From assembly GCA_024228555.1 (NCBI GenBank), contig JAAETI010000355.1, positions 3,602 to 67,601 on the forward strand: 64,000 nt of DNA. Reading direction: 5' to 3'. The notes below the pieces were generated by a model, which ran no database searches, was not told the origin of the DNA, and saw only the letters and a program-made list of their open reading frames with translations. Positions 17,662 to 48,349 of this stretch are shown here, in pieces (the first letter of the stretch is position 1; each line of letters opens with the position of its first letter). Position numbers and translations under genes: made by a program. The DNA comes from a bacterium. Its GTDB lineage: Bacteria > Actinomycetota > Acidimicrobiia > Spongiisociales > UBA5794.

Positions 17662-17735
17662 CTCTATTGCCTTTCTCGTCTTGAGGTGGGAGGGCCCATG
17701 GCCCTCCCACCTCGGAGTTACTTGCTAGTCGGGGC

Positions 17736-18827: not shown

Positions 18828-18867
18828 TATTTGAGTTTCCTCCTTGTATTTCCCGCAAAGCGGAAAT

Positions 18868-19800: not shown

Positions 19801-21005
19801 GATCCACCTCCATCAGGGGCCGGGGGCGGCCCGGTGTCGGGCGGATCCGGTGCTTCCTTTTCGGGCTCAGCGGCCGGTTCTTCTACGACCGCCGGCTGCC
19901 GCTCGAGGAGGCGGCGACGGAAGCCCTCTGTCGAGACTACGAAGACGACGACGAGGCCGTTGAGCGCAAGAATCAGGGCAGCCGGCACCTGCACAGCACG
20001 TTGCAGGGCGTTGCCGCCGACCAGCAATCCACCGAACAGGAATGAGGCGGGGATGGTCCACAACGGATGCAGCGCACCAAATAGTGCAGCGACGATTCCG
20101 TTAAAACCCGCACTTCCGGTGAAGCCGGCGGTGGAGCCGTCAGTGACCATGCGGTGGCTCTCGCTACCGAAGACGAGCACCGCCCCGGCGAGCCCGGCCA
20201 TGGCACCGCTCATCGTGAGGGCAAGCACGATCGTCCGCTTGACCGGAATGCCGGCGTAGCGGGAAGCGTCGGTGTTTTGCCCGACTGCCCGAACCCGATA
20301 ACCAAGCGGTGTCCGCCACAGAAGGATATACGCCGCGATAGCGGCGGCGATGGCGAGCAGCGGCCCAATGTGAAGACGGTCGGAACCAAAGAGGAATGGG
20401 AGGTCGGCCGCCTCCGGTAGGCGCTCTGTCTGCGGGATCCGGGTGCCTCGCTCGATCTCTGCCGGATCGATCAGCGGTCCGCGCAGCAAGTAGTTCATGA
20501 ACTGCACTGCCACCACGTTGAGCATGATCGTGCTCAGGATTTCGTTGACTCCGTAGTAGGCCTTGAGTGCACCTGGGATTGCCCCCCAGATAGCGCCACC
20601 AATCAGGCCTGCGATGAGAACCGCGGGAAGCATGATCGCCGCAGGGACGTCGGGCATGTTGAGCGCAACAATCGTGGACAGGAGGGCGCCCATAACCATT
20701 TGCCCTTCACCACCGATGTTGATGACGTTGGCGCGGAAGGCGATAGTGATACCGACACCGACGAAGAGAAGTGGTGTCGCCTTCAGCAGTGTTGCAGTGA
20801 GGGCCTTACCCGAGCCAAAGGCTCCGTCGAACATCGCTTTGACCCCTTCGACGGGGCTGGCATCAAGAGCGATGAGCATGAGCGCACCGAGGACCAAGGC
20901 GGCGAGAACCGAAGCAATTGGGACGCTGTAGGCGAGGAGTCGGCGCCCGCTAATCCCTCCCTGAGACGTCACTCGCTCGACTCCTCTCGAAGTTTCAGGC
21001 CACAT
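19797..21005 (-). CDS. ABC transporter permease (BMP/nucleoside type) with Pro-rich C-terminal tail
   Basis: Multi-TM protein. The C-terminus reads EPAAEPEKEAPDPPDTGPPPAPDGGGS. Confidence 0.85.
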   Translation of the reverse strand: MWPETSRGVERVTSQGGISGRRLLAYSVPIASVLAALVLGALMLIALDASPVEGVKAMFDGAFGSGKALTATLLKATPLLFVGVGITIAFRANVINIGGEGQMVMGALLSTIVALNMPDVPAAIMLPAVLIAGLIGGAIWGAIPGALKAYYGVNEILSTIMLNVVAVQFMNYLLRGPLIDPAEIERGTRIPQTERLPEAADLPFLFGSDRLHIGPLLAIAAAIAAYILLWRTPLGYRVRAVGQNTDASRYAGIPVKRTIVLALTMSGAMAGLAGAVLVFGSESHRMVTDGSTAGFTGSAGFNGIVAALFGALHPLWTIPASFLFGGLLVGGNALQRAVQVPAALILALNGLVVVFVVSTEGFRRRLLERQPAVVEEPAAEPEKEAPDPPDTGPPPAPDGGGS

Positions 21006-21841: not shown

Positions 21842-24421
21842 ATGTCTGAAACCACGTCTTTCTCTGTTAACGGACGTGACGTCCAGGTGCGGAGCGATCA
21901 TCCCCATCTGCTGTCAGCTTTGCGCGAAGAAGTAGGGGTTACGTCACCAAAGGACGGTTGCTCCCCTTCGGGTCAATGTGGTGCATGCACTGTATTGCTG
22001 GACGGCAAGGCAATCCAGAGTTGTCTCGTCAATATGGAGAAGGCCTCGGGCAAGACCGTCACAACGCTCGAGGGCTTTGATCCTGACGAACGTGACCGTC
22101 TTTCAAAGGTCTTTGCAGTAACCGGCGCCTTGCAGTGCGGTTTCTGTACTCCCGGCATCTTGGTTCGCACCAAGGCGCTGTTTGATCAGAAAGGCCCGGC
22201 TGGGGTCACTTCGCAGGTGGCCGCGGGTCGCCTCGGTGCGCACCTCTGCCGTTGCACCGGGTACACCAAGATTCTCGAAGCCGTTGAGATGTTGGCAACG
22301 GGCAATATCCCCGAACCGGCCACCCCGCAGCGGATCGGCGATAACGGTGCCAAGTACGAAGGCGTCGAACTGGCGCTCGGTGATCGTGGTTATGTCGACG
22401 ACATGTACCCGGATGGGATGTTGCACGGGGCATTGCGGATGACGGATCACTCCCGCGCTGACATCATCAAGATCGACACATCTGCTGCTGAGGCAGCCGA
22501 AGGTGTCGTCGGTGTGTTCACCGGAGCTGATGTTCCCGGCGAACTCAAGGTGGGGATCATCTACACCGACTGGCCGGTCTTCATCCCCGAGGACGGCCGT
22601 ACCTCGTACTACGGCGATGTCCTGGCCATCGTTGTGGCGGAGACCAAGGCACAAGCGCGCGCCGCCGCCGAGCTTGTCGAGGTTGAGTACAACGTGCTGA
22701 AGCCATTTGCCGATGCGAAGTCGGCTTTGGCTTCTGACGAGGACGCGGTGTGGGGTCTCGACGGCAACGTTCTGTCGACCTCCAAGTACAAGAGGGGAGA
22801 TGTTGACGAAGCGCTCGCGGGTTCTGCACATACCCTGCACGAGGTGTTCAAGACACAGCGCGTCGAGCATGCATTCCTGGAGCCTGAGTCGACGCTTGCT
22901 GTGCCCGACGGCAACGGCAATCTCATGGTCTACTCCGGCGGTCAAGGTGTGTGGGATGATCGCAACCAGATCGCCTCGCTCCTCGGTATCGAGCAGAGCG
23001 CGGTAACGGTCGAACTTGTTTCCAACGGCGGTGCCTTCGGTGGCAAAGAGGACATGTCGAACCAGGGGCAGACGGCTCTTGCCGCCCATCTGCTCGGGCG
23101 ACCGGTCAAGTGCACTCTGTCTCGCGAGGAGTCATTCCGCATTCACGCCAAGCGGCACCCGATCGAGATCGAGGTCTGGGCGGGTTGCGATGCTGACGGC
23201 AAGCTAACCGGTCTTCGGTCGCGGATGATTGGCGATTCCGGCCCGTACGCTTCCGTCGGGATGAAGGTGTTGGAGCGTGCCGCCGGTCACATGTGCGGCC
23301 CGTATGTGTGGGAGACCGTCGATGTCGAAGCGATCGCGGTCCGCACCAACAACCCGGTGTGTGGCGCCTTCCGTGGCTTTGGTGCCAACCAGGCTCAGTT
23401 TGCGATGGAAGGGATCATGGATCGTCTTGCCAGTGCCGTCGGGATCAGCGGGTGGGAAATGCGTTCCCGCAACGTCATCAGCCCCGGGGTGGTGTGGGGT
23501 CCCGGTCAGATCATGGACGACGGCAGCCGTGGCGCCAGGGAATGTCTTGATGCAGTCAAGCCTGCGTACGACCAAGCGCGCGCCGATGGCAAGGCTGTCG
23601 GTATAGGGCTTGGCCTCAAGAACTCGGGTCTTGGCAACGGCTTCCTGGAGATCTCCAAGGCTGTCGTTCGATTTGAGGATGATGGGACTGTCGAGGTGCG
23701 GCATTGCTGGACCGAGATGGGTCAAGGTGTGCACACGGTCGCCCTCCAGGTAGCTGCGGAAGAGCTCAATATCGATGCCGACCGCATCCGGGTTGTGGTT
23801 GACACCACCCGGGAACTCGGAGCGGGACAGACCACAGGTTCCCGTGGCACTTTGATGGTTGCCGGCGGTGTCGCCGACGCGTGCCGGGTTGCCAATGAGC
23901 ACAACCAGGCGCCTGGGGTTGATTATGAAGGCGAGTATCGGGTCGATTGGACCAACGCTCTCGAAGAGGAAGTGGAGAATCCAATTCTGCACTCGGCATT
24001 CGGGTATGCATGTCAGGTCGTTGTCGCCGACAAGGGCACCGGCAAGTTCGACAAGGTGATCGCGGCTCACGACGTGGGCCGCGCCGTCAACCCGATGCTG
24101 GTCGTCGGTCAGGTCGAAGGCGCCGTGCACATGGGTCTTGGATATGCCCTCACTGAGGAGTTCCCGACCGACGACGATGCTCGGCCCACAAACTGGACCT
24201 TGCGTAGCCTGGGGATCCTGCGGGCGAAGGACATGCCGGAGGTGGAAACCATCCTCGTTGAGGTCCCGCAACCTCGTGCTCCCTATGGTGTCAAAGGTGT
24301 CGGAGAAATCGGACTGGTGCCAACTGCAGGCGCGGTTGCCGGAGCCTTCTATGAGGTCGATGGCAAGCGCCGCACTCAGGTGCCGTTCAACATTCATCAG
24401 CCTCTGGAGGTAGCGAAGTGA
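21842..24421 (+). CDS. molybdenum hydroxylase, fused [2Fe-2S] + molybdopterin-binding subunit (XdhD-like)
   Basis: N-terminal ferredoxin with all 8 Cys (CSPSGQCGAC...SC; QCGFCTPG; CRCTGY). Followed by a xanthine dehydrogenase-family MoCo domain (GGAFGGK, GVKGVGEIG). No FAD domain is present. Confidence 0.9.
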   Translation: MSETTSFSVNGRDVQVRSDHPHLLSALREEVGVTSPKDGCSPSGQCGACTVLLDGKAIQSCLVNMEKASGKTVTTLEGFDPDERDRLSKVFAVTGALQCGFCTPGILVRTKALFDQKGPAGVTSQVAAGRLGAHLCRCTGYTKILEAVEMLATGNIPEPATPQRIGDNGAKYEGVELALGDRGYVDDMYPDGMLHGALRMTDHSRADIIKIDTSAAEAAEGVVGVFTGADVPGELKVGIIYTDWPVFIPEDGRTSYYGDVLAIVVAETKAQARAAAELVEVEYNVLKPFADAKSALASDEDAVWGLDGNVLSTSKYKRGDVDEALAGSAHTLHEVFKTQRVEHAFLEPESTLAVPDGNGNLMVYSGGQGVWDDRNQIASLLGIEQSAVTVELVSNGGAFGGKEDMSNQGQTALAAHLLGRPVKCTLSREESFRIHAKRHPIEIEVWAGCDADGKLTGLRSRMIGDSGPYASVGMKVLERAAGHMCGPYVWETVDVEAIAVRTNNPVCGAFRGFGANQAQFAMEGIMDRLASAVGISGWEMRSRNVISPGVVWGPGQIMDDGSRGARECLDAVKPAYDQARADGKAVGIGLGLKNSGLGNGFLEISKAVVRFEDDGTVEVRHCWTEMGQGVHTVALQVAAEELNIDADRIRVVVDTTRELGAGQTTGSRGTLMVAGGVADACRVANEHNQAPGVDYEGEYRVDWTNALEEEVENPILHSAFGYACQVVVADKGTGKFDKVIAAHDVGRAVNPMLVVGQVEGAVHMGLGYALTEEFPTDDDARPTNWTLRSLGILRAKDMPEVETILVEVPQPRAPYGVKGVGEIGLVPTAGAVAGAFYEVDGKRRTQVPFNIHQPLEVAK

Positions 24422-25522: not shown

Positions 25523-29095
<3,573 letters not shown>

Positions 29096-32947: not shown

Positions 32948-33667
32948 CTAGCCCGCTACCGGCACAGTGACGACGGTCACGTCGGGGGCGAGTAGACCGA
33001 CTGCATCAGTCACGGATCTTGCCGCCTGCTGATCTGCCGTCGAATTGGCCTTGGTCAATCCAATGAACACCCGGCTCCCCGCAGGGCAGGCCCGCAATGC
33101 GCCCTCGGGGTGCACCAGGATTGCAGCACAGTCAGCCGGGGTCAGAATGTGGTTCGAGTCGAGCCCCGTAAACCGCACCGCCTCTTCGATTCGATGGGTG
33201 ACCTCGCCGAGGGGTTGTCCCACGGCCTCGATTCCTACGAGGATCACAACGACCGTCGACAGCGATGGAATGACCGGCTCGTGTGCCGCGGGTGCCTTGA
33301 GCGGACGACCACGAGATCCATCGGCCTCGACAACGATGTAGTCGATCTTGGGTTCCTTGAACAGGTCGTCCACGACATCTGGGGGCGGCCCCGTTACCTT
33401 GTGATCATCGCCACCGGTGATGATCATTACCGGTCCTGGCTTGTCGAGAGCTTCGATCACATAGCGAGTGTCTGCCGACCGGCAGATAGTTTCTACCACC
33501 GTTGTTTGGTCTCTGCCCATCTTCGTGGTTGTCGTGAGAACAATCCGCTTCCCCGCCGCGGTCAGTTCATCGCCAAGCCTAAAGAGCATCGTCGACTTGC
33601 CGCCGCCACCGACCAGCGAGATGAGTTCGCGGTCACCAAGACCGAGGAGACCGGCTAGATCTGTCAT
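32948..33667 (-). CDS. selenium-dependent hydroxylase accessory protein YqeC family (P-loop)
   Basis: LISLVGGGGKSTMLFRLGDEL...RIVLTTTTKMG matches the YqeC (TIGR03172-type) pattern as I recall it. Confidence 0.7.
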   Translation of the reverse strand: MTDLAGLLGLGDRELISLVGGGGKSTMLFRLGDELTAAGKRIVLTTTTKMGRDQTTVVETICRSADTRYVIEALDKPGPVMIITGGDDHKVTGPPPDVVDDLFKEPKIDYIVVEADGSRGRPLKAPAAHEPVIPSLSTVVVILVGIEAVGQPLGEVTHRIEEAVRFTGLDSNHILTPADCAAILVHPEGALRACPAGSRVFIGLTKANSTADQQAARSVTDAVGLLAPDVTVVTVPVAG

Positions 33668-33670
33668 CTG

Positions 33671-34471
33671 CTAGCGATTCCCCAGCCAGGTGAGGGTCGC
33701 TTCGACGACACCGCCACCGATCGACAGCGCCTTGTCGGAAATCTCAAAGCATGCCGAGGAGTCGGCACGGGGATCAATATCGGCAAGCTTCCAATCCCAC
33801 TCGACCTCGTAGCCGGGGGCCAGCAGACCGCGCACGACACCCCCGATGCGTGACCTGATGGGGACCCCGTTGATATCGCCGAGCACGTCGCCTGCCGCAA
33901 CCATATCGGCGATCCCGACCTTCCAAGTGAGGATCCCGAATGTGGGTGCCCGCACGACGCGTTCGCTGGTCTTGCCCCCGATGACACCGGGCTCGCCGGT
34001 GTTTGCCGTGGCTTCACCGTCCCAGATCACCCGGCCCAGATAGTGGCCGCGCATGGTTTCGACAACAGCGTGACAGTCGGTGCCGGCGTTGAAGCCCGGG
34101 CCTAGTCCGATTACGAGTGGAGCGTCGTTGATGTTTGTGTCGATATTGCGTTTGGCAATCCTGGCGTCGACCACCACCGATGGCTCCCAGGGCAGTTGTA
34201 GCAGTGTTGGGCTGACAAGCACGGGGATGGCCCCCGACTTGGCGATCTCGAGCGCCTCATCGATATCGTCGACCCGGATCGCATCTAGGTCCTCGATCAG
34301 AGCGCGCTCCTCGATCACCGCAGCCGCCACCGAGACCGTGCGTCTGATTGCCAAGGGTTGTGCTAGTTCCAGCACCAGCACAGGGAACCCCGCACGGCGT
34401 AGCCGGTAGATCGTTCCTGTCGCCAAATCGCCGCCGCCCCTGACTACGACGAGGTGATCCTGGAAGAGCAT
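33671..34471 (-). CDS. selenium-dependent molybdenum hydroxylase system protein, YqeB family
   Basis: VVVRGGGDLATGTIYRLRRAGFPVLVLELAQPLAIRRTVS matches the YqeB/EF2563-family pattern. Its start overlaps the xdhC stop. Confidence 0.65.
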   Translation of the reverse strand: MLFQDHLVVVRGGGDLATGTIYRLRRAGFPVLVLELAQPLAIRRTVSVAAAVIEERALIEDLDAIRVDDIDEALEIAKSGAIPVLVSPTLLQLPWEPSVVVDARIAKRNIDTNINDAPLVIGLGPGFNAGTDCHAVVETMRGHYLGRVIWDGEATANTGEPGVIGGKTSERVVRAPTFGILTWKVGIADMVAAGDVLGDINGVPIRSRIGGVVRGLLAPGYEVEWDWKLADIDPRADSSACFEISDKALSIGGGVVEATLTWLGNR

Positions 34472-35262
34472 CAGTCGGCTTCCGATCTGTTCTTGCGAAT
34501 GACTTCGGAGAGGATCGATACTGCGATCTCCTCCAGAGTTTCGGCATTGAGTTCGATCCCGATTGGCACGTGGATCCTGTCGAGGTCCTCAGCCGTGATG
34601 TCGCCGGCTACCAGCTGTTCCTTTGTCGAACGCCACCGGGTGCGGCTACCCATGACACCGATGTACCGCGCTGGTGTTTCGAGCAACTCGGGGAGGATGC
34701 GGACATCCACCTCGGGGCTGCGCGTCACAACGATCACTGAAGTGTTCTCGGTAATCGGGTATTTGGCGATGGCGTCACTGACCGTCCCTGCGAAGCGAGA
34801 GTCGGCGTTGGGCATTGCCTCTTCGCTGACAAGATCGGGGCGATCGTCGACCGCAATTGTGCGATAGCCCAGCCAGTGGGCAAGATCGACAACGGTACGG
34901 CCGACATGACCGCAGCCGATTACGTAGACGGTGTGTGGTGGCATGTATGGCTCCAGGTATAGCGTGAGTTCGCCGCCGCAGATCCCAGGGTCGCCCTCTT
35001 TCGGATTGACCAATTCGTATTCGACAAGACGGGAGCGGCCCTCGGTTATTGTCTCGAGTGCCGTGGCGATCACCGTGGCCTCCATCTGTCCGCCGCCCAC
35101 AGTTCCCGTGGTTTCGCCGTCGCCGAAGACCAACATCTTGGTACCGGCATGGCGGGGCACCGACCGGCGGGTAGCGACGATCGTGGCCAAGACCACAGGA
35201 CGGTCGGCCTCGATGGCTGCATTGAGTTTGCGCAGGATCAGCGCATTGTCCGCAGCACTCAT
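34471..35262 (-). CDS. XdhC/CoxI family molybdenum cofactor insertion chaperone
   Basis: XdhC N-terminal domain plus XdhC Rossmann domain (VYVIGCGHVGRTVVDLAHWLGYRTIAVDDR). Confidence 0.85.
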   Translation of the reverse strand: MSAADNALILRKLNAAIEADRPVVLATIVATRRSVPRHAGTKMLVFGDGETTGTVGGGQMEATVIATALETITEGRSRLVEYELVNPKEGDPGICGGELTLYLEPYMPPHTVYVIGCGHVGRTVVDLAHWLGYRTIAVDDRPDLVSEEAMPNADSRFAGTVSDAIAKYPITENTSVIVVTRSPEVDVRILPELLETPARYIGVMGSRTRWRSTKEQLVAGDITAEDLDRIHVPIGIELNAETLEEIAVSILSEVIRKNRSEAD

Positions 35263-35265
35263 CTT

Positions 35266-38178
35266 CTAGCCCGATTGCATCGCCCGCCACACCCGTTCCG
35301 GGGTGAACGGGAGGTTGTCTATCTGTGTTCCGGTTGCGTTGAAGATGGCGTTGCGGATGGCGGGTGCCACACCGTCCTTGGGGATCTCTGCGATTGCTTT
35401 CGCACCGAACGGACCCGACTTCTCCATCGTCTGCACCATGTAGGCCTCGATCTGGGGCATCTCGTCTGCCCTGTAGATCTTGTACGGCCCAAAGCGGGCA
35501 TTGACCATGTTGCCTTCATCATCGAGGGCCATCTCCTCGCAGTGCCCGTAACCCAGCGCCTGCACCATGCCGCCTTCAACCTGGCCTGCCGATGTCAACG
35601 GGTTGATCGGGACACCGCAGTCGACAGCCATCACCAGGTTGTTGACGGTCACCTGGCCGGTGTCGATGTCGACCTCGATCTCCGCAAACTGGGCCGCATA
35701 TGGTGGTGGCGAGTCGGGGGCAACGTACGAAGCGGTCGCCATGATCTGGTGCTGATCGTCTTGATGCAGCGAGTGCAGCGCAACTTCAGCGAGGGTTACG
35801 GAACGGCCATCGGGGGCAAAGGCCGCCTTCTCCTTGAGCTCAATGTCGCCAGGCGAGTCGACGTCGAGCATGATCGCTGCCCTGGTGACGATCTGGCGAT
35901 GAACCTCGTCGGCCGCCTTCTTGACGGCCATGCCCGACACGTAGGTCGTCGAGGAGGCGTAGGCACCGACATCGAACGGTGTCATGTCGGTGTCGGCTGC
36001 GTAGACGACGATCTCTTCGGTCGGCACGCCGAGCACCTCGGCTGCCATCTGCGCCAGGATCGTGTCGGCCCCTGTGCCCAGGTCGGTGGCACCCATCAAC
36101 AGGTTGAACGAACCGTCATCGTTGATCTTGATGCTGGCTCCACCCATGTCGAGCCCAGAGATGGCGCTGCCGTGCATGCACATCGCAAACCCGAGACCAC
36201 GCCGGATGTTGGGTCGATCCGCCGGTTGTACCCAAGCGGGGTCGTTGCGACGGTGCCAGGCGACGGCACGCTGACCTTGCACGACACACTCGTCCATGCC
36301 GCTGGAGGTCACTACGGGGACGAACTTCATGTCGGCGGCGCCTTCACCCAATTCGGCTGCCACGTCGAGAGGGTCACCGACCTTGGTCCAGTTCTTGCGA
36401 CGGAACTCGAGAACATCCATACCCAGTTCGGTAGCGATGTCATCCATGTGCGATTCGAGAGCAAACAACGCTTGCGGAGCCCCGTAGCCGCGGTAGGCGC
36501 CGGCCACCGGAGTGTTGGTGTAGGCAACGTCGCAATCGAACTTCTTGTTGGGGCAGTTGTAGGTGCTGAGGCCGCGCAGACCGCTCACCATCTGCACCGT
36601 CAGCGAGTGCGTTCCATACGGGCCAGTGTTGCCGACCGTGCGCATACGTTGTGCGACCAGGGTGCCGTCGTTGCTGACGCCGGTGGTGAAAGTGATCGTC
36701 TGCGGATGACGAGTTCGGCTCGAGACGAACTCCTCTTGCCTGTTGAGTTCCATACGGACCGGCTTGCCGGTAGCAATGGCCAGGTGGCCGACGATGTCCT
36801 CGATCAACATCTCCTGCTTCACGCCAAAGCCACCGCCGATGCGGGGCTTGACGATACGAATGTCGCGAACCGGCATTCCGAGCAGTGGAGCGACCATGCG
36901 ACGCACGTGGAAGGGAACCTGCGTAGAGGTCCTGATGACCATTCGCTCGTCGCTGTCCAGCCAGGCAATGGCGATGTGCGGCTCGATGGGTGCTTGCTGC
37001 ACCTGATGAACCCTGAAGACCCGTTCGAAGACTCGATCAGCGGCGGCGAGACCGGCTTCAATGTCGCCGACCTCAGCGTCGATGTGAGTGACGATGTTGC
37101 GGGCCGGGTCGTGGGCACCTTCCATCTCGTCTTCGTCGTGGATGATCGGAGCGTTCCCTGAGATGGCCTCGTTCTCGTCGAAGACCGCTGGCAGCACCTC
37201 GTACTCGACTTCGATCAGCTTGACTGCTGCTTCGGCGATTTCGATGCTATCGGCGGCGACAACGGCGACCCGATCACCGACATGGCGAACCTTGTTGTCG
37301 AAGCTCACCTGGTCGTAGGGGAGCGGGTTCGGGTAGCTCTGTCCACCCGAGGCGTAGCGGATCCTGGCAACGTTCTCGTGATGCAGGACGGCTTTCACAC
37401 CGGGAAGGGAGCGTGCCTTGGAGTCGTCGATTGCGACGATGCGGGCGTGGGCGTGCGGGCTGTAGAGCATCTTGGCGTAGAGCATCCCCCGCATCTCGAT
37501 GTCATCGACGAAGGCTGGGTTTCCCTTAGCGAGCTTCACCGCATCGACCTTGCGTTCGGGCTTCCCAACGACATTGGTCTCGGGGACCTCGGGGCTGGGA
37601 ACGACACGTGGTGCCAACGGATCGAGGTTCAGCGCCGGATTGGCTGCTGACATATCCGGCGTCCCTCCGAGTGCCACCAGCGGCTCCACTATGGCGGGTT
37701 CAACCGGTTCCGGCTTCTCGCCCCGCAGCATGGCGGCAGCCCGCAACACGGCGTGAACAGGGCGCAGATAACCGGTCTCCCTGTCCAGGATCCCGGAGAG
37801 GGCATCGCGGACCTCAGCCTCGGTGGGGTTCGGATTGGAGTCGATCAGCGCCTTGGCGGCGAGGATGGTTGCAGGCGTTGAGTAACCCGACTGGATAGCT
37901 CCGCTGGACACAAACGCTTCTTGGATGGGGTGCAAGCCGCGGGGTAGATTTAGGCCCTCGAGTGTCTCGACTGCGTGCCCATCGGCTTGTGCCGCCAGCA
38001 TCACCTCAGATGAGACAAGACGACCGTCGAGCAGGATCGCATCGGCTCCGGTCTCGCCGGTTTCGGCACCGAAGCGGACGCTGAAGAACCCCTCACGACG
38101 CAGCACTGCACGGAGTGACTCGTGTGGCTGGCATTCATAGGTGCGCTGGTCCCCGTTGACGGTGAGGTTGATGTTCAT
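35266..38178 (-). CDS. molybdenum hydroxylase MoCo subunit fused to a cysteine-less (degenerate) [2Fe-2S] ferredoxin-like domain
   Basis: The MoCo domain is intact (GGGFGVKQE, GAKAIAEIP). In the N-terminal Fer2/Fer2_2-like region every Fe-S ligand Cys is replaced. GADA replaces CGAC, SGYSTPA replaces CGFCTPG, and LDRETGY replaces LCRCTGY. Confidence 0.9.
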   Translation of the reverse strand: MNINLTVNGDQRTYECQPHESLRAVLRREGFFSVRFGAETGETGADAILLDGRLVSSEVMLAAQADGHAVETLEGLNLPRGLHPIQEAFVSSGAIQSGYSTPATILAAKALIDSNPNPTEAEVRDALSGILDRETGYLRPVHAVLRAAAMLRGEKPEPVEPAIVEPLVALGGTPDMSAANPALNLDPLAPRVVPSPEVPETNVVGKPERKVDAVKLAKGNPAFVDDIEMRGMLYAKMLYSPHAHARIVAIDDSKARSLPGVKAVLHHENVARIRYASGGQSYPNPLPYDQVSFDNKVRHVGDRVAVVAADSIEIAEAAVKLIEVEYEVLPAVFDENEAISGNAPIIHDEDEMEGAHDPARNIVTHIDAEVGDIEAGLAAADRVFERVFRVHQVQQAPIEPHIAIAWLDSDERMVIRTSTQVPFHVRRMVAPLLGMPVRDIRIVKPRIGGGFGVKQEMLIEDIVGHLAIATGKPVRMELNRQEEFVSSRTRHPQTITFTTGVSNDGTLVAQRMRTVGNTGPYGTHSLTVQMVSGLRGLSTYNCPNKKFDCDVAYTNTPVAGAYRGYGAPQALFALESHMDDIATELGMDVLEFRRKNWTKVGDPLDVAAELGEGAADMKFVPVVTSSGMDECVVQGQRAVAWHRRNDPAWVQPADRPNIRRGLGFAMCMHGSAISGLDMGGASIKINDDGSFNLLMGATDLGTGADTILAQMAAEVLGVPTEEIVVYAADTDMTPFDVGAYASSTTYVSGMAVKKAADEVHRQIVTRAAIMLDVDSPGDIELKEKAAFAPDGRSVTLAEVALHSLHQDDQHQIMATASYVAPDSPPPYAAQFAEIEVDIDTGQVTVNNLVMAVDCGVPINPLTSAGQVEGGMVQALGYGHCEEMALDDEGNMVNARFGPYKIYRADEMPQIEAYMVQTMEKSGPFGAKAIAEIPKDGVAPAIRNAIFNATGTQIDNLPFTPERVWRAMQSG

Positions 38179-38918
38179 GCGGAACCTCCGAGTTGGTCGG
38201 CGACTCGTCTGACGAGCACCTCGGCGAGCTGTCGGCGGTATTCGCTCGTTCCGCGGAAGTCGGCTGGCGGGTCGAGCGATGAGACACTGTCGACACTGAC
38301 GAGAACTGGAGTCGCGGCCACTCCGGTCAGGGCGATACGAAGACCGGTGGCGACGATACGGCCGGCGGCTGCCACGATCGACGTGTCGGCGGGCGTCCTT
38401 CCCGTGCGCTCGGCAGCGGTCGCGCCACCAATAGCAACGGTGACCGTCGTGACTACCGCCCTATCAAGCACCGAGAAGTCGGCGAGAAGATCTTCGAGAG
38501 CGAGGTCACGGGATCCCGACGAATCGGCAACGGTCACCAGAGCTTCGTGGACGAGAAGCCCAGCGAGAAGCTCGCTTTCCGGGTCGCCTTCGGCAACGGT
38601 CCCGCCGACGGTAGAAACGTTGCGCAGTGTGTTGGGACCCTCCCGCTTGGCAAGGGCGGTCAGCAGAGGCGGGGTGTCGTCGTGATCGATGAGGTCCTGA
38701 AGCCGTGTCATGGCGCCGAAGCCGACGCGGTCACCATCACGGGAAATGCCCGCAGCGACAGCTGCTTGCAGGTCAACCACCTCGGTATTGGCAGGGAGAT
38801 CGGTGGTGTTCACCGCGGTGCCTCCAGCGAGAACTGTCGTGGTGACATCGGTTCTTGCAAGCAATACGATCGCCTCGTCGAGCGTTGCGGGCCGGTGGTA
38901 CGAACTGATGCGATTCAT
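38175..38918 (-). CDS. molybdenum hydroxylase FAD-binding subunit (CoxM/YgfM-like)
   Basis: FAD_binding_5-like motifs LAGGTAV...STVGGTVA. The gene is first in the operon and overlaps the next gene by 4 nt. Confidence 0.8.
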   Translation of the reverse strand: MNRISSYHRPATLDEAIVLLARTDVTTTVLAGGTAVNTTDLPANTEVVDLQAAVAAGISRDGDRVGFGAMTRLQDLIDHDDTPPLLTALAKREGPNTLRNVSTVGGTVAEGDPESELLAGLLVHEALVTVADSSGSRDLALEDLLADFSVLDRAVVTTVTVAIGGATAAERTGRTPADTSIVAAAGRIVATGLRIALTGVAATPVLVSVDSVSSLDPPADFRGTSEYRRQLAEVLVRRVADQLGGSA

Positions 38919-39091
38919 GTGAGTTTCTCCGCTGCTCGACTGGTGTATCCAGGATAGTTGGTGGGATCTCGGTGCATTCCAAGTACAGCCGGATTCGCCT
39001 ATCCCTCGATATTTCTGATTCCCATTGGGAAGTTACGATCGGCTTGCTTCAGGTTCTCGTCCCGACGGCCATCAACTCCACTCGCCGGTCA

Positions 39092-39289
39092 GTGTGCATC
39101 GGCGATGACGGGTTCCTTCTGGTCACCGATCGGCTCAAGGACATCATCATCGAGTCGTTTGCTCCTCTGGATCGTGAGTTCTCGCAAGAGGACAGCAAGA
39201 TCACACCGACACAGAAGATCCGTCGCCGCTTCGTGGAGCAGAGCTTTGCTGACGAGACCGATGCGGTGTACGCCACCGCAGGCACGTGA
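39092..39289 (+). pseudogene. remnant of long-chain acyl-CoA synthetase (FadD) C-terminus
   Basis: DDGFLLVTDRLKDIIIES joins directly to EFSQEDSKITPTQKIRRRFVEQSFADETDAVYA. This has the typical FadD C-terminal residues, but the central ~80 aa are missing and there is no N-terminal body. Confidence 0.5.
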
Positions 39290-39308
39290 ACCGCCTATCT
39301 TGCGACCC

Positions 39309-39890
39309 ATGATTGGTGGCATTGTCCTTGCGGCCGGCCTATCAGAGAGGATGGTCGGCGACGTACCCAAGCAGCTCTTGCCGCTTGGTGATGTCCCGAT
39401 TGTGGCCGTCACCGTTGGCCACGCCGAGGCGTCATCCCTTGACCAGGTTGTGGTTGTCACCGGTCACCGCGGCGCCGAGGTGGCGGCGGCCGTGTCCGAT
39501 AGTCGAGCGATCGTGGTCGCGAACCCCGATTACCGCCAAGGGAACATGACCTCGTTCCGTGCTGGTTTTTTGGCGCAGGCCGAATGCGATGCCTATGTGA
39601 TTCTTCTTGCAGACATGCCAACGGTGACTAGCGAGATGATCAATCGCTTTGTCGACCTGTGGACTCACGCCCGTCCGTGGGCGGCGGTAGCCCGATACCG
39701 GGAGGGGCCTGCTCATCCATTGCTTCTGTCTGCAGATGCGATTGCGGAGGCGATTGCGATGGAGGGGGCCAAAGGTGTGTGGCGCTTTCTCGCCGCGGCT
39801 CCTGCAGATCAAGTGGCTGAGGTTCTGTTCGACCAGGCAACGCCGCCCGACATCAACACCGTCGAGGACTACGAGCGAGTCACGCCCTAG
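39309..39890 (+). CDS. mocA: MocA-type molybdenum cofactor cytidylyltransferase (nucleotidyltransferase family)
   Basis: MIGGIVLAAGLSERMVGDVPKQLLPLGDVPIV MobA-like fold. It is encoded divergently from the hydroxylase operon. Confidence 0.8.
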   Translation: MIGGIVLAAGLSERMVGDVPKQLLPLGDVPIVAVTVGHAEASSLDQVVVVTGHRGAEVAAAVSDSRAIVVANPDYRQGNMTSFRAGFLAQAECDAYVILLADMPTVTSEMINRFVDLWTHARPWAAVARYREGPAHPLLLSADAIAEAIAMEGAKGVWRFLAAAPADQVAEVLFDQATPPDINTVEDYERVTP

Positions 39891-43530: not shown

Positions 43531-44484
43531 CTATCTCTGTTCGCGGAAGTACGGTATACCCAGCGCCGCAGGGGCTCCGAGGAACCGGGCGCGTTTGCCA
43601 CTGGTGAGCACGATCATGGCAACGATGGCAAGGACGAACGGCAGCATCGCCAGCAAGCTGGACGGGATGTTGCTCCACGGTTCGCCGAGGGTTTGCAACG
43701 TGAAGCCAATCCGCTCCGCCGCACCAAACAGGTAGGCGGCGAATAGGGCTCGCCACGGCCGCCAGCTCGCCAGGATCACGAGGGAGATGGCAATCCAGCC
43801 GGCTGGCCCGATCGGCTCGTTCTGCCAGGTTGGGACCAAAGCCAGCGAGTAGTAGGCGCCACCAAGACCGGCCAATGCCCCACCGACCATGATGTGCACG
43901 TAGCGAATTCGTGCGACATTCACCCCGGCCGACTCAGCGCTGGCCGGGTCTTCGCCCACGGCGCGAAGCGACAGTCCCATCCGGGTGCGGAAGAGGTAGA
44001 AGCTCGCAGCCGCCACCGTCAACCAAGAGACATAGACGAGGATGTCGTGGCCAAAGATCAGTGGACCGATAACGGGGATGTCGGCAAGGCCGCCTTCGAG
44101 GATTGGCTCGAAGGTCGCCTTTGAAGGCTCACCAACCAGGGGCTCTGCACCGGCCTCGCCGAGGAAGCTCGACAAGCCGGCTCCGAAGATTGTCAAAGCC
44201 AGCCCGGAGACGATCTGGCTGACTCGGAGCGTGACCGAGGCGAAAGCGTGGATCATGGAGAAGCCAGCCCCGGCGATCATCGCAACGATTACCCCAAGCA
44301 GCAGACTTTCGGTGTTGTACGTTGCCCAGAAACCAGCGACGGCGCCGACAAGCATCATGCCCTGGACCCCAAGGTTGAGGTTGCCCGCCCGTTCGGTGAT
44401 GATTTCTCCGACGGTGGCATAGACGATGCCGGTACCCAGCCCCATGGCCGCAAACAGTGTGAGGATCAGCGTTGACTCGTTCAT
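43531..44484 (-). CDS. ABC transporter permease (BMP/nucleoside type)
   Basis: Multi-TM protein with a 4-nt overlap with the upstream permease. Confidence 0.85.
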   Translation of the reverse strand: MNESTLILTLFAAMGLGTGIVYATVGEIITERAGNLNLGVQGMMLVGAVAGFWATYNTESLLLGVIVAMIAGAGFSMIHAFASVTLRVSQIVSGLALTIFGAGLSSFLGEAGAEPLVGEPSKATFEPILEGGLADIPVIGPLIFGHDILVYVSWLTVAAASFYLFRTRMGLSLRAVGEDPASAESAGVNVARIRYVHIMVGGALAGLGGAYYSLALVPTWQNEPIGPAGWIAISLVILASWRPWRALFAAYLFGAAERIGFTLQTLGEPWSNIPSSLLAMLPFVLAIVAMIVLTSGKRARFLGAPAALGIPYFREQR

Positions 44485-45596
44485 GCTTCAACCCCCTCGG
44501 CTCCGGGAGACATAGACGGTTTCTTCTCCGGCTTGCGTACTCGATTGGCGATGAAGAACTCACCGGCAACAGCAAAGATAAGGATGGCGCCCTGGAGCAT
44601 GGTGACGGTGGACGCCGGCACCCGGATGGACTGAAGAGAGGGGCCGGCGTTGTTGAGCGCACCCATCAAGATGCCGACCGGGATGACTGCGATCGGATTG
44701 AGCCGGGCCAACGCGGCAACGATGATCCCGGTGAAGCCAAGGCCCAGATCCAGCGATCGAGGGTCGAGCGCTCCTACCGGTCCGGCAACATAGAGAGAAC
44801 CGGCGAGACCGGCGAAGGCTCCGGACATCAGGAAGACTCCGAGGAACTTTCGGGGAACCGCGATGCCGGCGTAGCGAGCAGTATCGGCCGAGTCACCGAC
44901 GATACGAACCTCGAATCCCCACTTCGTCTTGCTGATCAGGAACCAGGCGAGGATGGCGAGGAGCACGGCCACGACGAAACCCCAGTCGAGGCGATTGAAG
45001 AATTCGGGGATACGCGAGCTGTCGGGCAGCGGACGCCCGGTTGGGAATTGACTGACCTCTGGATCACGCCACGGGCTCTCGCTACCAAAGATCAAATAGT
45101 TCATGAAGTTGAGGGCTATGAAGTTGAGCATCAGGGTTGTGATGATCTCGTTCGTGCCGAGATACACCTTGGGCACTGCCGAAACCGATGCCCAGAAGGC
45201 GCCGCCGATTCCACCGGCGATGATCACCAGCGGCAGCGCAATCGCCATTGGCGTGCCTGGTCCGAGGGCAATGGCGAGACCTGCCGCAAAGATGGCGCCC
45301 ATGATGAACTGGCCTTCCGCACCGATGTTCCAGACCAGCATCTTGAATGCCACCGCGGCGGCAACACCGGTGAGGATCAGCGGTGTTGCCGAAATCAGAG
45401 TCTCGCTGATACCACGGCTGGAGCCGAACGAGGTCTTGGCCATCTTGGTGTAGACCTCCCACGGGTCGTTACCGGTGAGGGCTAGAAAGATGGCGCCGAC
45501 GATCAGAGCCAGCAGAACGGAAACCAGCGGAACGGCCAGCGTCAGCCGTCCCGAGGCAAGACCTCTCGGTTCAACAATGAGGCGTCGGGCGGTCAT
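44481..45596 (-). CDS. ABC transporter permease (BMP/nucleoside type)
   Basis: Multi-TM protein with a 4-nt overlap with the ATPase gene. Confidence 0.85.
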   Translation of the reverse strand: MTARRLIVEPRGLASGRLTLAVPLVSVLLALIVGAIFLALTGNDPWEVYTKMAKTSFGSSRGISETLISATPLILTGVAAAVAFKMLVWNIGAEGQFIMGAIFAAGLAIALGPGTPMAIALPLVIIAGGIGGAFWASVSAVPKVYLGTNEIITTLMLNFIALNFMNYLIFGSESPWRDPEVSQFPTGRPLPDSSRIPEFFNRLDWGFVVAVLLAILAWFLISKTKWGFEVRIVGDSADTARYAGIAVPRKFLGVFLMSGAFAGLAGSLYVAGPVGALDPRSLDLGLGFTGIIVAALARLNPIAVIPVGILMGALNNAGPSLQSIRVPASTVTMLQGAILIFAVAGEFFIANRVRKPEKKPSMSPGAEGVEA

Positions 45597-47125
45597 GTCG
45601 TTGCCTCCTCTTTTTGACCAGCCATAAGCAGGCCGAGCCGCTCCGGGGTCGCCTCATCAGCGGGCATTTCCCCGGCCACCGTACCCTCGTAGATCACAAT
45701 GACTCGGTCAGAGAGTGCCAGCAGCTCATCGAGATCCTCCGATACGAGCAGCACCGCGGTTCCTTCCGCTCGTTCAGCAAGGATCTGGTTGCGCACCGCC
45801 TCGGTGGCACCAACATCGAGACCACGAGTGGGGGAGCGGGCAATCAAGACCTTCGGGTTCAACTCAACCTCGCGAGCCAGTAGGGCTTTCTGCAGATTGC
45901 CACCGGACAGCAGGCGGATCGGTAGACCGGGTCGTACACCACGGATGTCGTACTTCTCGATCCATTCCTCTCCACGCTCCTTGAAGACGCTGGCGGTGAG
46001 CATGGGACCGTTGGAATAGGGTGGTTTGCGATAGGCCTTGAGGCCGAGGTTCTCCTCGGTGGTGAGGCCCGGAGCCAGCCCCATTCCGAGCCTGCTCTGG
46101 GGGACGTAGGCAACGCCGCGATCGGTGCGGTCGGACACAGACATCTTTGTGACATCCTCGCCGTCCAGTTTGATAGTCCCCGAGGTGGGGATACGAAGCC
46201 CGACAAGACCGTAGGCAAGCTCGCGTTGTCCGTTGCCCGAGACACCGGAAATCCCGAGGACCTCTCCCGATCTGATCGTGAAGGTCATGCCACGGACTGC
46301 TTCGAGACCGCGGTCGCCGTCGACACGTATTGAGTCCACTTCGAGCATTGGGCCACCGATATCTGGGTTCTCTTCCCTTGTGGGTAGCTCGAGATCGCGG
46401 CCAACCATCATTCGGGCAAGGTCGCGTGGCTCGGCATCGGCAGTGTCGGCGCCACCAACTGTGGTGCCGTCGCGCAGCACGGTCACTCGGTCAGACACCT
46501 GCTTGACCTCGTGGAGCTTGTGTGAGACGAAGATCACCGAGCGGCCTTCTTCAGCCATCTGACGCATCGTCTTGAAGAGCTGCTGGGCCTCCTGTGGCGT
46601 CAGCACCGCGGTCGGCTCATCGAGGATCAGAATCTTGGCGTTGCGGTACAGCAGTTTGAGGATCTCAACCCGCTGCTGCTCGCCGACAGACAGCTGCCAA
46701 ATGCGGGCGGCGGGATCGACCGGAAGGCCGTACTCCTCGCCAAGTTCCCGAGCTTCCTCTTCCAGCTGACTCTGAGAGATGGTCACCCCGAGCTTCGGGT
46801 GGCCGAGGGCCAGGTTCTCGGCGACGGTGAGGTTGGAGACCAGGCGGAAGTGCTGATAGACCATGCCGACACCGGCAGCAAGAGCATCCTTTGGCGTCTT
46901 GAAGACCGTTGGCTTGCCTTCGTAGAGGAACTCTCCTGCATCAGGGCGATACAGCCCAGCGAGGATTGAGCACAGCGTCGACTTGCCAGCCCCGTTCTCG
47001 CCAAGAAGAGCATGAACCTCTCCGTGACGTAATTCGAAGTTGACGTTGTCATTGGCTTTTACGCCATAGAACGCCTTGTCGATGTTGCGAAACTCTACTG
47101 CCAGTGTGTCTGCGTGATCGGCCAT
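45593..47125 (-). CDS. ABC transporter ATP-binding protein (duplicated ATPase)
   Basis: GENGAGKSTLCSIL plus a second NBD. Confidence 0.9.
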   Translation of the reverse strand: MADHADTLAVEFRNIDKAFYGVKANDNVNFELRHGEVHALLGENGAGKSTLCSILAGLYRPDAGEFLYEGKPTVFKTPKDALAAGVGMVYQHFRLVSNLTVAENLALGHPKLGVTISQSQLEEEARELGEEYGLPVDPAARIWQLSVGEQQRVEILKLLYRNAKILILDEPTAVLTPQEAQQLFKTMRQMAEEGRSVIFVSHKLHEVKQVSDRVTVLRDGTTVGGADTADAEPRDLARMMVGRDLELPTREENPDIGGPMLEVDSIRVDGDRGLEAVRGMTFTIRSGEVLGISGVSGNGQRELAYGLVGLRIPTSGTIKLDGEDVTKMSVSDRTDRGVAYVPQSRLGMGLAPGLTTEENLGLKAYRKPPYSNGPMLTASVFKERGEEWIEKYDIRGVRPGLPIRLLSGGNLQKALLAREVELNPKVLIARSPTRGLDVGATEAVRNQILAERAEGTAVLLVSEDLDELLALSDRVIVIYEGTVAGEMPADEATPERLGLLMAGQKEEATT

Positions 47126-47227
47126 TGCCGTAGCCTAGCCAGTCGTCTTCCTCGTGGCTCGTTGCGCCCAAAAAGCAAGAAGGGCCCCGCCAGAAGCGGG
47201 GCCCTTCTTCATGTTTGTGTGTATCGA

Positions 47228-48349
47228 TCAGCCGGTTGGGCTACCGATAACACCATTGACGAAGAAGTCCATACCGAAGATGTCGCCGAGCTCGCGCTCA
47301 TTGCCATCCTGATCAACGATCGGGTCGGGCAGCACGCTGAACGTGCCGGCGATGATCTCGGCCTTGCGCTCTTCGATGAGAGTACGAGTGGCGTCGTCGA
47401 CCGAGTCGCCGAACGGTGCAATGTCAACCATGCCGCTGGCCATCGTGCCGTAGGCGAAGCCGGGTTCGAAGGTACCGGCCTGGACGGCCTGTGCGACCTC
47501 TAGGTAGTACGGGCCCCAGTCCCAGATGGCTGCGGTGAGCCAGGCGCTGGGGGCGAACTCGGTCATGTCGGTGTTGTAGCCGACCCACTTGGCTCCGGCT
47601 GCTTCGGCCGTCTGGCCGGGAGCTGCCGAGTCCTGGTGCATGGCGATGACGTCTGCGCCGGCGTCGAGCAGCGATTGTGCGGCCGCGCCTTCCTTCGGCG
47701 GATCAAACCAGGTTGATGTCCAGACGACCTGGACCTGTGCGTCCGGGTTGACTTCCTGGGCGCCCAATGTGAAGGCGTTGATGCCACGCAGCACCTCAGG
47801 GATCGGGAAGGCAGCGACGTAGCCGATGAGGTTGCCCTCGGTGGCTGCGCCCGCGGCCATTCCGCTCAGGTAGCGACCCTCTTCGGCAGCGCCGAAGTAG
47901 TTGCCCATGTTCTCAGAGGCCTTGTAGCCAGTGGCGTGCATGAAGGTCACATCCGGGTAGTTCTCCGCTGCGGCCAGCATCGGATCCATGTAGCCAAACG
48001 ATGTGCCGAAAATGAGCGTGTTGCCGTCGGCGGCAAGATCCTCAAACACACGCTGGGAGTCCGAGCCCTCGGGAATGCTCTCGAGGAACACCGTCTCGAC
48101 GTTCATGTTGTCTTCGAGATACTGCATGCCCTGGTCATGTGCCCAGGACCAGCCTTTGTCAGCTACGGGGCCGACGTGGACAAAGGCAACCTTGAGTGGC
48201 TCGCCATCATCCACCGGTGCGGCGGTGGTCTCGGTTCCGCCTGCTGCTGCCGTGGTTGTCGTGTCCTCATCGTCTCCGCCACACGCCGCCGCGACGAGCG
48301 CAAGAGCAAGAGCGAGGATTGCGAGCAACCGCCAATTGATACGGTTCAT
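47228..48349 (-). CDS. BMP-family (PnrA-like) ABC substrate-binding lipoprotein
   Basis: Lipobox LVAAACGG followed by a BMP fold. Confidence 0.85.
   Translation of the reverse strand: MNRINWRLLAILALALALVAAACGGDDEDTTTTAAAGGTETTAAPVDDGEPLKVAFVHVGPVADKGWSWAHDQGMQYLEDNMNVETVFLESIPEGSDSQRVFEDLAADGNTLIFGTSFGYMDPMLAAAENYPDVTFMHATGYKASENMGNYFGAAEEGRYLSGMAAGAATEGNLIGYVAAFPIPEVLRGINAFTLGAQEVNPDAQVQVVWTSTWFDPPKEGAAAQSLLDAGADVIAMHQDSAAPGQTAEAAGAKWVGYNTDMTEFAPSAWLTAAIWDWGPYYLEVAQAVQAGTFEPGFAYGTMASGMVDIAPFGDSVDDATRTLIEERKAEIIAGTFSVLPDPIVDQDGNERELGDIFGMDFFVNGVIGSPTG

Follow-up and report, generated by a model that had tools for sequence, protein, structure and literature searches.

To our knowledge, every characterised member of the xanthine oxidase family has been described with two [2Fe-2S] clusters between its molybdenum cofactor (MoCo) and its electron partner. 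A gene in a 64,000-nucleotide stretch of an Acidimicrobiia genome (lineage UBA5794; assembly GCA_024228555.1, contig JAAETI010000355.1, positions 3,602 to 67,601 of the forward strand), referred to below as the window, raises the question of what becomes of such an enzyme when the ligands of both clusters are gone. The gene (35266..38178, minus strand) is an uninterrupted open reading frame (ORF) encoding a fused ferredoxin-like and MoCo-binding protein of 970 amino acids (aa). An initial annotation of this DNA had claimed that all eight ligand cysteines are replaced in its N-terminal module (residues 1–150, window positions 37729..38178), and that the module is a retained pseudo-ferredoxin and not the product of a deletion. 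These two claims are borne out by the codons, alignments, and predicted structure described below.

Replacement of the [2Fe-2S] ligands

The N-terminus of the 970-aa protein aligns in frame, residue for residue, with that of a paralogue encoded in the same window, in which C40/C46/C49/C61 and C99/C102/C136/C138 make up the full set of eight cysteines (C-x5-C-x2-C...C and C-x2-C...C-x-C). None of the equivalent positions in the 970-aa protein (A38, T43, D46, E58, S97, S100, D132, and E134) is a cysteine. The corresponding codons (GCC, ACC, GAT, GAG, TCG, TCA, GAC, and GAG) are each two to three base changes away from TGY, and the only cysteine within residues 1–160, C16, is not at a ligand position. 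A search of the alternative frames over 37700..38200 found no Cys motif, and a frameshift or other reading that would give the cysteines back was rejected. The second half of the module is recognised by the Pfam model PF01799 (Fer2_2; residues 72–144, 70.4 bits against a cutoff of 30.3, E-value 1.4e-19), and no match to PF00111 (Fer2) was obtained at E ≤ 0.01.

The same replacement was found in all 120 database homologues with 73–96% identity, chiefly from Acidimicrobiia metagenome bins, none of which has a cysteine at any of the eight positions. Since these sequences come from many independent assemblies, an artefact specific to this contig is ruled out, and the observation is real. Nor is it a peculiarity of one paralogue or contig, because XdhD of Escherichia coli K-12 (b2881), which is 36% identical to the 970-aa protein over its full length, has D38, A44, D47, S59, S98, N101, S133, and D135 at the ligand positions, and dozens of other species share the loss. 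Altogether, more than 160 relatives of the 970-aa protein lack the eight ligands, as do that protein itself and E. coli XdhD. RefSeq names E. coli XdhD 'molybdopterin-binding subunit and Fe-S binding subunit', and the NCBIfam family TIGR03313 is named 'Mo/Fe-S-binding subunit'.

The remainder of the protein is that of a xanthine oxidase family member. Its Pfam matches all exceed their cutoffs (PF01315, 102 bits; PF02738, 272 bits; PF20256, 245 bits), and E931, in the motif FGAKAIAEIP, aligns with the catalytic glutamate of the GEI/SEI motifs of the paralogue and E. coli XdhD. Of the features that define the family, the hammerhead and MoCo-binding domains and the catalytic glutamate are present in the 970-aa protein, and the eight cysteines of the two [2Fe-2S] clusters are absent. 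An FAD-binding subunit, optional in the family, is predicted from the gene directly upstream.

The top NCBIfam model for the 970-aa protein is TIGR03313 (XdhD/YgfN), with 699.1 bits under a cutoff of 1101.9; TIGR03311, which describes selenium-dependent xanthine dehydrogenases (XDH) of the XdhAC type, gives 401 bits under a cutoff of 830. The XdhD-specific loop LGEG is present, and its residue E612 is equivalent to E. coli E606, which has been singled out as the XdhD-specific glutamate of the substrate loop, with a proposed role (Li et al. 2025, PMC12507026). The best sequence match of the MoCo part in the PDB is 1rm6 (1.2e-97). These data identify the 970-aa protein as the predicted catalytic subunit of a selenium-dependent molybdenum hydroxylase of the XdhD/YgfM type, and it thus belongs to a known kind of enzyme, that of the urate pathway. 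Judged by homology, its most likely activity is that of a urate 6-dehydroxylase, with 2,8-dioxopurine as the product. The initial annotation took both paralogues of the window to be XdhD-like; the cysteine-bearing one is instead of the TIGR03311, or clostridial XdhAC, type.

Cysteine content and constraint among orthologues

Orthologues were sought in one genome per GTDB species, which yielded 80 loci with 54–92% identity, distributed over Acidimicrobiia, other Actinomycetota, and many Chloroflexota; 76 of them could be typed at the ligand positions. All eight cysteines are present at 15 loci (CCCCCCCC), and the N-terminal cluster alone has been lost at four loci of Caldilineaceae (DSDG-CCCC). 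One residual cysteine is found at ten loci (STADSSCE). The remaining 47 have no cysteine, comprising 40 of an 'ST' type, which includes the window protein (e.g., STADSSDE), and seven of a 'DxD' type (e.g., DTDQSNDE). Along the series the ligands are exchanged within nearly identical flanking residues, at the first site from SVKHGCE-TGECGAC through SVKHADE-TGESGAD to SVRFGAE-TGETGAD, and at the second from QCGYCTPA to QSGYSTPA and from LCRCTGY through LCRETGY to LDRETGY. An exhaustive search of representative proteins agrees with this picture, having returned an eight-cysteine protein (P0121, 56% identity), a half-lost one (P0124, DGDG-CCCC), and two E. coli-like cysteine-free proteins (P0137 and P0163).

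In a bootstrapped neighbour-joining tree of the MoCo part, the GTDB loci and P0121 form one clade (bootstrap support 95) apart from the clade of E. coli XdhD (100). The four-cysteine clade is sister to the eight-cysteine loci (95), and the cysteine-free 'ST' and 'DxD' clades, each with a support of 100, are not sisters, although the nodes between them are weak. The C-x4-C spacing of the first site is common to eight-cysteine and cysteine-free members of the clade, and E. coli XdhD has a spacing of x5. The tree and this indel point to three or more probably independent losses of the clusters, affecting the lineage of E. coli, the lineage or lineages of the window protein, and, by half, Caldilineaceae. 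Judged from the aligned ligand positions, cluster loss was stepwise and repeated within one orthologous group, and where an intermediate survives it is the FAD-proximal cluster (FAD, flavin adenine dinucleotide) that was lost first.

The half-lost Caldilineaceae proteins (loci L072, L074, L077, and L079 of our scan) also carry two insertions, one of 8 residues in the first, plant-type ferredoxin domain of the module (domain I) and an acidic one of about 15 residues between it and the second, helical domain (domain II). Two of the closest loci, L003 (CAXMRC010000066.1, 92% identity) and L013 (CAXMQV010000010.1, 77%), are labelled as Gemmatimonadales and Gammaproteobacteria bins and have an Acidimicrobiia-like gene order; these labels probably reflect mis-binning of metagenome bins.

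The E. coli pair XdhD-YgfM (b2881/b2880; TIGR03313/TIGR03312) resembles the window pair in that the catalytic subunit is fused and collinear, lacks all eight cysteines, and has the GEG loop and the catalytic glutamate, in that the FAD-subunit gene lies directly upstream, and in that YqeB, YqeC, and MocA are encoded nearby. The window protein differs in the spacing of the first site and in its replacement residues, and both window subunits score under the NCBIfam cutoffs (for the FAD subunit, 69.9 against 241.5 with TIGR03312). Its clade, moreover, is a different one, in which the basal members retain eight cysteines, and this makes the loss in the window clade probably independent of that in E. 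coli.

The module that lost its ligands has not been released from constraint relative to the rest of the protein. The ratio of within-group identity of the N-terminal module to that of the MoCo part is 0.90 in the cysteine-free group and 0.89 in the eight-cysteine group, and for domain II alone it is 0.94–0.95 in all groups; domain I has a ratio of 0.73 only in the one-cysteine subclade, which has no adjacent FAD gene. Gln96 is invariant in the alignment, and we take the glutamine of the canonical Q-C-G-[FY]-C motif to contact the pterin, as in structures of XDH and of the Desulfovibrio aldehyde oxidoreductase (MOP). The motifs QSGYSTPA and LDRETGY are conserved among the cluster-free clades. 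Catalytic Glu and GEG loop are kept in the orthologues shown with 0, 1, 4, and 8 cysteines and in E. coli XdhD, the loop with the minor variants LGEA and LGER; neither the paralogue nor more distant XDHs have this loop.

An AlphaFold model of the 970-aa protein alone, built on an alignment of 67 homologues, predicts the whole architecture (mean predicted local distance difference test score, pLDDT, 76; predicted template modelling score 0.79). Domain II is predicted with pLDDT values of 75–95, and domain I as beta-grasp strands with a helix, in which the former cluster loop (residues 32–42) has a pLDDT below 50. The top fold matches in the PDB are 1sij and 1dgj, fused Fe-S and MoCo aldehyde oxidoreductases (template modelling scores 0.73–0.79 over about 1020 alignment columns, full chain), and a match to 1rm6 was also seen. 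The first two, MOP of Desulfovibrio gigas and D. desulfuricans, are like the window protein single chains with no FAD domain, but at 26–27% identity they bind two [2Fe-2S] clusters through the eight cysteines that it lacks. The third, 4-hydroxybenzoyl-CoA reductase, is a reductive, dehydroxylating member of the family, as the window protein would be; its substrate, in contrast, is an aromatic CoA-thioester, its Fe-S and FAD subunits are separate, and its cluster sets are full, with a [4Fe-4S] cluster in addition.

Substitute ligands among the cysteines and histidines of the module (C16, H19, H68, and H83) were considered and rejected, being either clade-specific or equally found in eight-cysteine orthologues. 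Two canonical clusters cannot be held, because no Cys or His ligand set exists. A different metal, structural or redox-active, could instead be bound by polar residues in the former pterin-side site (S97, S100, D132, and E134), an explanation to which we attach little likelihood. Serine, serine or asparagine, aspartate, and glutamate are strongly conserved at these positions in two cluster-free clades (QSGY[SN]TPA, LDRETGY), and aspartate recurs at positions one and three of the first site in several lineages (D-x-D-G). However, the first site varies among close relatives, one position being alanine in 73 and aspartate in 45 of them, and its loop is predicted at low confidence; serine or isoleucine occupies the seventh ligand position in E. 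coli XdhD and P0137; and ligands offering oxygen only, with no His or Cys, would suit Mg or Ca and not a redox metal. The initial annotation had suggested that the carboxylates bind a different metal. For the first site, where the third ligand position is A, D, S, or G among close relatives, this is not supported, while for the well-conserved second site it may hold.

It is scarcely credible that the gene is decaying or that its product is a relic with no catalysis, whether a pseudo-enzyme or a carrier of MoCo or selenium. Pseudo-enzymes have typically lost cofactor ligands, and the TIGR03313 score is under its cutoff, but the intact 970-aa ORF is conserved at 73–96% identity in 120 clusters and at 54–92% in 80 species, as are its catalytic Glu, GGGFG region, and GEG loop, it lies in a tight operon with maturation genes, and its E. 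coli counterpart is reported to be active (PMC12507026).

The N-terminal module is thus best described, from the alignments and the model, as a maintained structural domain predicted to be free of clusters. Overall, we consider it probable that this domain is part of an active enzyme that has no need for the Mo-FeS-FeS-FAD relay. The initial annotation had offered an enzyme working with no canonical relay and a domain that is purely structural as alternatives; as such they do not stand, and the comparative data favour both together. The N-terminal 150 residues would survive as a scaffold, in which domain II, with its retained Gln96, would cap the pterin side of the cofactor and domain I would dock the FAD subunit, so that the pseudo-domains would persist as part of the MoCo pocket and of the docking surface for that subunit.

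Electron supply to the molybdenum site

The FAD-subunit genes that accompany these enzymes are unevenly preserved. Of the 34 window-clade loci, 31 have a FAD-like gene directly upstream, as against none of the ten loci with one-cysteine orthologues. The AGGT and T[VI]GG motifs are kept in the FAD-like subunits of the window clade and the four-cysteine clade and in E. coli YgfM; the motifs of the 'DxD' clade, and those of five out of six FAD-like genes found beside eight-cysteine orthologues, are degenerate. In the window itself, the YgfM-like subunit retains LAGGT and TVGGTVAEGDP as predicted FAD motifs, and the TGA stop of its gene overlaps the ATG of the MoCo gene (ATGA).

The FAD-like ORFs upstream of eight-cysteine orthologues L066, L070, L073, L081, and L082, and also those of L043, L052, and L053, have degenerate dinucleotide-binding glycine motifs, examples being LVVSPR / TVAGAL and QIHRAL. 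These homologues look like pseudo-flavoprotein subunits standing beside enzymes that bear putative Fe-S ligands, the converse of the situation in the window. Around the Chloroflexota loci with no FAD gene, no conserved neighbourhood was found, except that a gene of the DHO_dh family (UacX-like) lies directly upstream of the one-cysteine orthologue in L033 (8824..9960, plus strand); we take this to be the family of Clostridium difficile UacX, an alternative 2,8-dioxopurine reductase. Near the cysteine-free orthologue of L002, a Bac_luciferase gene (16390..17529, plus strand), presumably of the family of a putative F420-dependent reductase, occurs together with a carbamate kinase gene and two PALP genes.

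The relay could have been shortened, with electrons passing from NAD(P)H (reduced nicotinamide adenine dinucleotide, or its phosphate) through the FAD of the YgfM-like subunit directly to the pterin and molybdenum. They might tunnel over a long range or hop across the cluster-free domain, or the FAD subunit might lie nearer to MoCo than is canonical. The strict retention of AGGT and T[VI]GG in the window clade and YgfM, the placement of the FAD gene directly upstream at 31 of 34 window-clade loci, and the ATGA overlap all speak for such a route, the strongest of the rival explanations but still one that we regard as unlikely. The path known in this family leads from Mo through FeS I and FeS II to FAD in three hops of about 15, 12, and 8 Å (bovine XDH, CO dehydrogenase). 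A single jump from flavin to pterin would span about 20 Å or more and hence be slower by orders of magnitude; the cluster-free forms have gained no conserved aromatic, Cys, or His residue; the one-cysteine subclade has no adjacent FAD gene; and the FAD motifs of the 'DxD' clade are degenerate. The shortened relay also has biochemical support, since NADH is reported to sustain urate reduction by E. coli XdhD-YgfM (PMC12507026).

A further, quite improbable explanation is that Fe-S clusters are supplied in trans by a docking protein such as YgfK or a ferredoxin. In E. coli, ygfK-ssnA-ygfM-xdhD form a single gene string, YgfK is also encoded in the window, and a three-subunit YgfK/M/N enzyme with YgfK as its 'Fe-S subunit' has been proposed historically (cited in PMC2744661 and used in PMC2276186). 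The window ygfK, however, is 6 kb away, beside the cluster-bearing paralogue, and is found within 10 kb in few related loci. YgfK has been demonstrated to have a job of its own, the reduction of 2,8-dioxopurine (PMC12990295; bioRxiv 10.1101/2025.04.24.650524), and only a protein of about 30 kDa is reported to have co-purified with E. coli XdhD (PMC12507026), which was assumed to be YgfM. Moreover, the retained pseudo-domain would cover the pterin face, so that an external cluster could hardly come within 14 Å.

We return to an active enzyme with a structural, cluster-free domain and no need for the relay. That the reaction would be independent of the Mo-FeS-FeS-FAD wire is suggested by the repeated, mosaic decay of the relay parts, which takes in the lost clusters, the FAD motifs that some lineages no longer have, and the missing FAD gene beside the ten one-cysteine orthologues. 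As to how the metal would then turn over, we tentatively propose, as the likeliest single route though less likely than not, that Mo(Se) is reduced and reoxidised within the substrate pocket. This would amount to a ping-pong reaction in which the partner is another, reducing substrate or a small reductant that diffuses, and the FAD subunit of the window clade would be an accessory or a slow entry point for NAD(P)H. Such a route is favoured because Mo-only forms appear viable in the one-cysteine subclade and because ping-pong chemistry has a precedent, being long known for xanthine oxidase. A functional analogy is provided by pyrogallol-phloroglucinol transhydroxylase, a Mo enzyme whose net reaction involves no external electron transfer, Mo being reduced and reoxidised by the substrates. 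Its fold, that of the DMSO (dimethyl sulphoxide) reductase family, is unrelated, it retains Fe-S clusters, and no homology is claimed.

Several observations weigh against this interpretation. The window clade retains its FAD motifs strictly, and translation of the FAD gene is coupled to that of the MoCo gene; therefore, the FAD subunit does something. The FAD subunits of the apparently FAD-less Chloroflexota loci could be encoded elsewhere in their genomes. The deep nodes of the neighbour-joining tree are weak, and the putative substrate is assigned by homology alone, at 36% identity and with TIGR03313 under its cutoff. E. coli XdhD-YgfM, which Li et al. modelled on Rhodobacter XDH, is reported to have made 2,8-dioxopurine ('yanthine') out of urate in vitro when given NADH (PMC12507026), which implies that electrons pass from FAD to Mo to some extent. 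Because the assay as reported used 10 µM enzyme and an end-point read-out with no kinetics (PMC12507026), the passage could be very slow, and the result does not tell a physiological route from such a slow one. Finally, an E. coli ΔxdhA strain is reported not to consume xanthine (PMC12507026), which makes xanthine unlikely as the reducing co-substrate in that organism.

A bolder proposal, which we consider doubtful, is that the XdhD-type urate dehydroxylases are the first enzymes in the xanthine oxidase family with no Fe-S cluster at all, having a self-sufficient Mo(Se) site that works in the manner of a purine transhydroxylase. If this were so, the discarding of the internal wire on at least three independent occasions would be explained.

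Gene neighbourhood

The 970-aa protein is encoded in a tight minus-strand operon comprising the genes of the YgfM-like FAD subunit, the MoCo protein, an XdhC-like factor, YqeB, and YqeC (Table 1). In the work of Haft & Self (2008, PMC2276186), YqeB and YqeC mark selenium-dependent molybdenum hydroxylases, and both are found here in the operon of the MoCo gene with scores above their cutoffs. No match to SelD was detected among the window ORFs scanned. A six-frame scan of the window with hidden Markov models revealed no separate CoxS-like small Fe-S subunit, the only such domains being the two fused ones. E. coli YqeB is a single protein of 541 aa annotated as 'XdhC-CoxI family protein YqeB'; in the window, as in related loci, the XdhC-like protein (263 aa) and the TIGR03309 YqeB (266 aa) are products of separate genes with a 1-nt overlap.

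Table 1. Features of the 970-aa protein and neighbouring genes in the window.
Feature	Position	Strand	Basis
Domain I, pseudo plant-type ferredoxin domain, residues 1–70 (former FAD-side cluster)	37969..38178	-	alignment to paralogue and eight-Cys orthologues
Ligand equivalents, domain I	A38 38065-38067; T43 38050-38052; D46 38041-38043; E58 38005-38007	-	codons read
Domain II, pseudo Fer2_2 helical domain, residues 71–150 (former pterin-side cluster)	37729..37968	-	PF01799
Ligand equivalents, domain II	S97 37888-37890; S100 37879-37881; D132 37783-37785; E134 37777-37779	-	codons read
Pro/Ala-rich linker, residues 151–200, poorly conserved	37579..37728	-	within-clade pairwise identity 0.33 vs 0.71 for the MoCo part
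a/b-hammerhead and two MoCo-binding domains, residues 201–970	35266..37578	-	PF01315, PF02738, PF20256
Catalytic Glu and Glu of XdhD-type GEG loop	E931 35386-35388; E612 36343-36345	-	motif alignment
YgfM-like FAD subunit, 247 aa	38175..38918	-	PF00941 (71 bits), PF03450; 28% identity to E. coli YgfM
XdhC-like MoCo insertion/maturation factor	34471..35262	-	PF02625, PF13478
YqeB-type selenium-dependent MoCo maturation protein	33671..34471	-	TIGR03309, 323.5 bits, cutoff 220
YqeC selenium cofactor biosynthesis protein	32948..33667	-	TIGR03172, 173.2 bits, cutoff 73; PF19842
MocA-like MoCo cytidylyltransferase, divergent	38958..39890	+	PF12804; TIGR03310, 125.5 bits, under cutoff 186
Cys-bearing paralogue, fused 2x[2Fe-2S] and MoCo, XdhAC / selenium-dependent XDH type	21842..24421	+	TIGR03311, 806 bits, cutoff 830
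Short SsnA-like amidohydrolase, 340 aa	24418..25440	+	TIGR03314 / NF005540, profile positions 57–333 of 441
YgfK (Fe-S flavoprotein; 2,8-dioxopurine reductase in published pathway)	25523..29095	+	TIGR03315, 916 bits, cutoff 835

A second gene group, 6 kb away, encodes the TIGR03311-type fused Fe-S and MoCo protein, the short SsnA, and YgfK. Taken together, the gene set of the window is that of the reductive urate (2,8-dioxopurine) pathway, recently described (PMC12507026; PMC12990295; bioRxiv 10.1101/2025.04.24.650524). Both reported types of candidate urate 6-dehydroxylase are present, the eight-cysteine XdhAC/TIGR03311 type and the cysteine-free XdhD/YgfM type, and the two occur within 10 kb of each other in many related loci (e.g., L008, L014, L026, L027, L040, L041, L054, L056, and L075). 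XdhAC of Clostridium sporogenes, a 2,8-dioxopurine dehydrogenase of the TIGR03311 type, is like the 970-aa protein a fused ferredoxin-like and MoCo protein, is selenium-dependent, and catalyses the same reported pathway step; it has Fe-S binding domains and is reported to use viologen and not NAD(P)H (bioRxiv 10.1101/2025.04.24.650524). Its type is represented in the window by the paralogue beside ssnA and ygfK, which differs from the 970-aa protein in being only 27% identical to it and in lacking the GEG loop.

The SsnA-like ORF has a GTG start that overlaps the stop of the upstream MoCo gene, and it is equally short in L013; longer and more distant SsnA-like amidohydrolases (23–34% identity) lie beside many XdhD-type genes of other species. 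The MocA-like ORF, read from a TTG start, encodes 310 aa, of which residues 121–281 form the nucleotidyltransferase domain and residues 1–120 match nothing. Its true start is probably downstream of the TTG, which would put about 350 bp of divergent intergenic DNA between it and the ygfM-like gene. The purine genes are flanked by two complete BMP-family ATP-binding cassette (ABC) transporter operons, each with an ATPase, two permeases, and a binding protein (16135..21005 and 43531..48349, both on the minus strand). Both transporters score under the cutoff on 'B6 ABC transporter' models, and they are possibly purine or nucleoside importers.

Implications for the XdhD lineage

A member of the xanthine oxidase family free of Fe-S clusters does not appear to have been described previously. 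The text of Li et al. (PMC12507026) mentions neither missing cysteines nor Fe-S clusters of XdhD, and the accessible portions of a commentary (PMC12990295) and a preprint (bioRxiv 10.1101/2025.04.24.650524) likewise do not mention missing ligands. In the most relevant literature naming 'XdhD' or 'ygfN', subscription-only reviews aside, none of the passages on these genes or on Fe-S mentions the cysteine loss. The series of orthologues with eight, four, one, and no cysteines, with its independent losses, is new comparative evidence.

The current annotation as an 'Fe-S binding subunit' contradicts the sequences, which show the XdhD lineage to be unable to bind such clusters. One member is the E. 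coli enzyme at the entrance to the anaerobic urate pathway of the gut, of relevance to gout and hyperuricaemia, and the mechanism assumed for it, from NADH through FAD and the Fe-S clusters to Mo, needs to be re-examined. The engineering of uricolytic probiotics is affected as well, since the cofactors that have to be supplied change. The natural variants, with eight, four, one, or no cysteines and with intact or degenerate FAD motifs, make it possible to test the purpose of the relay directly. If the Mo(Se) site does prove to be self-sufficient, these orthologues would document the dismantling of an electron-transfer chain.

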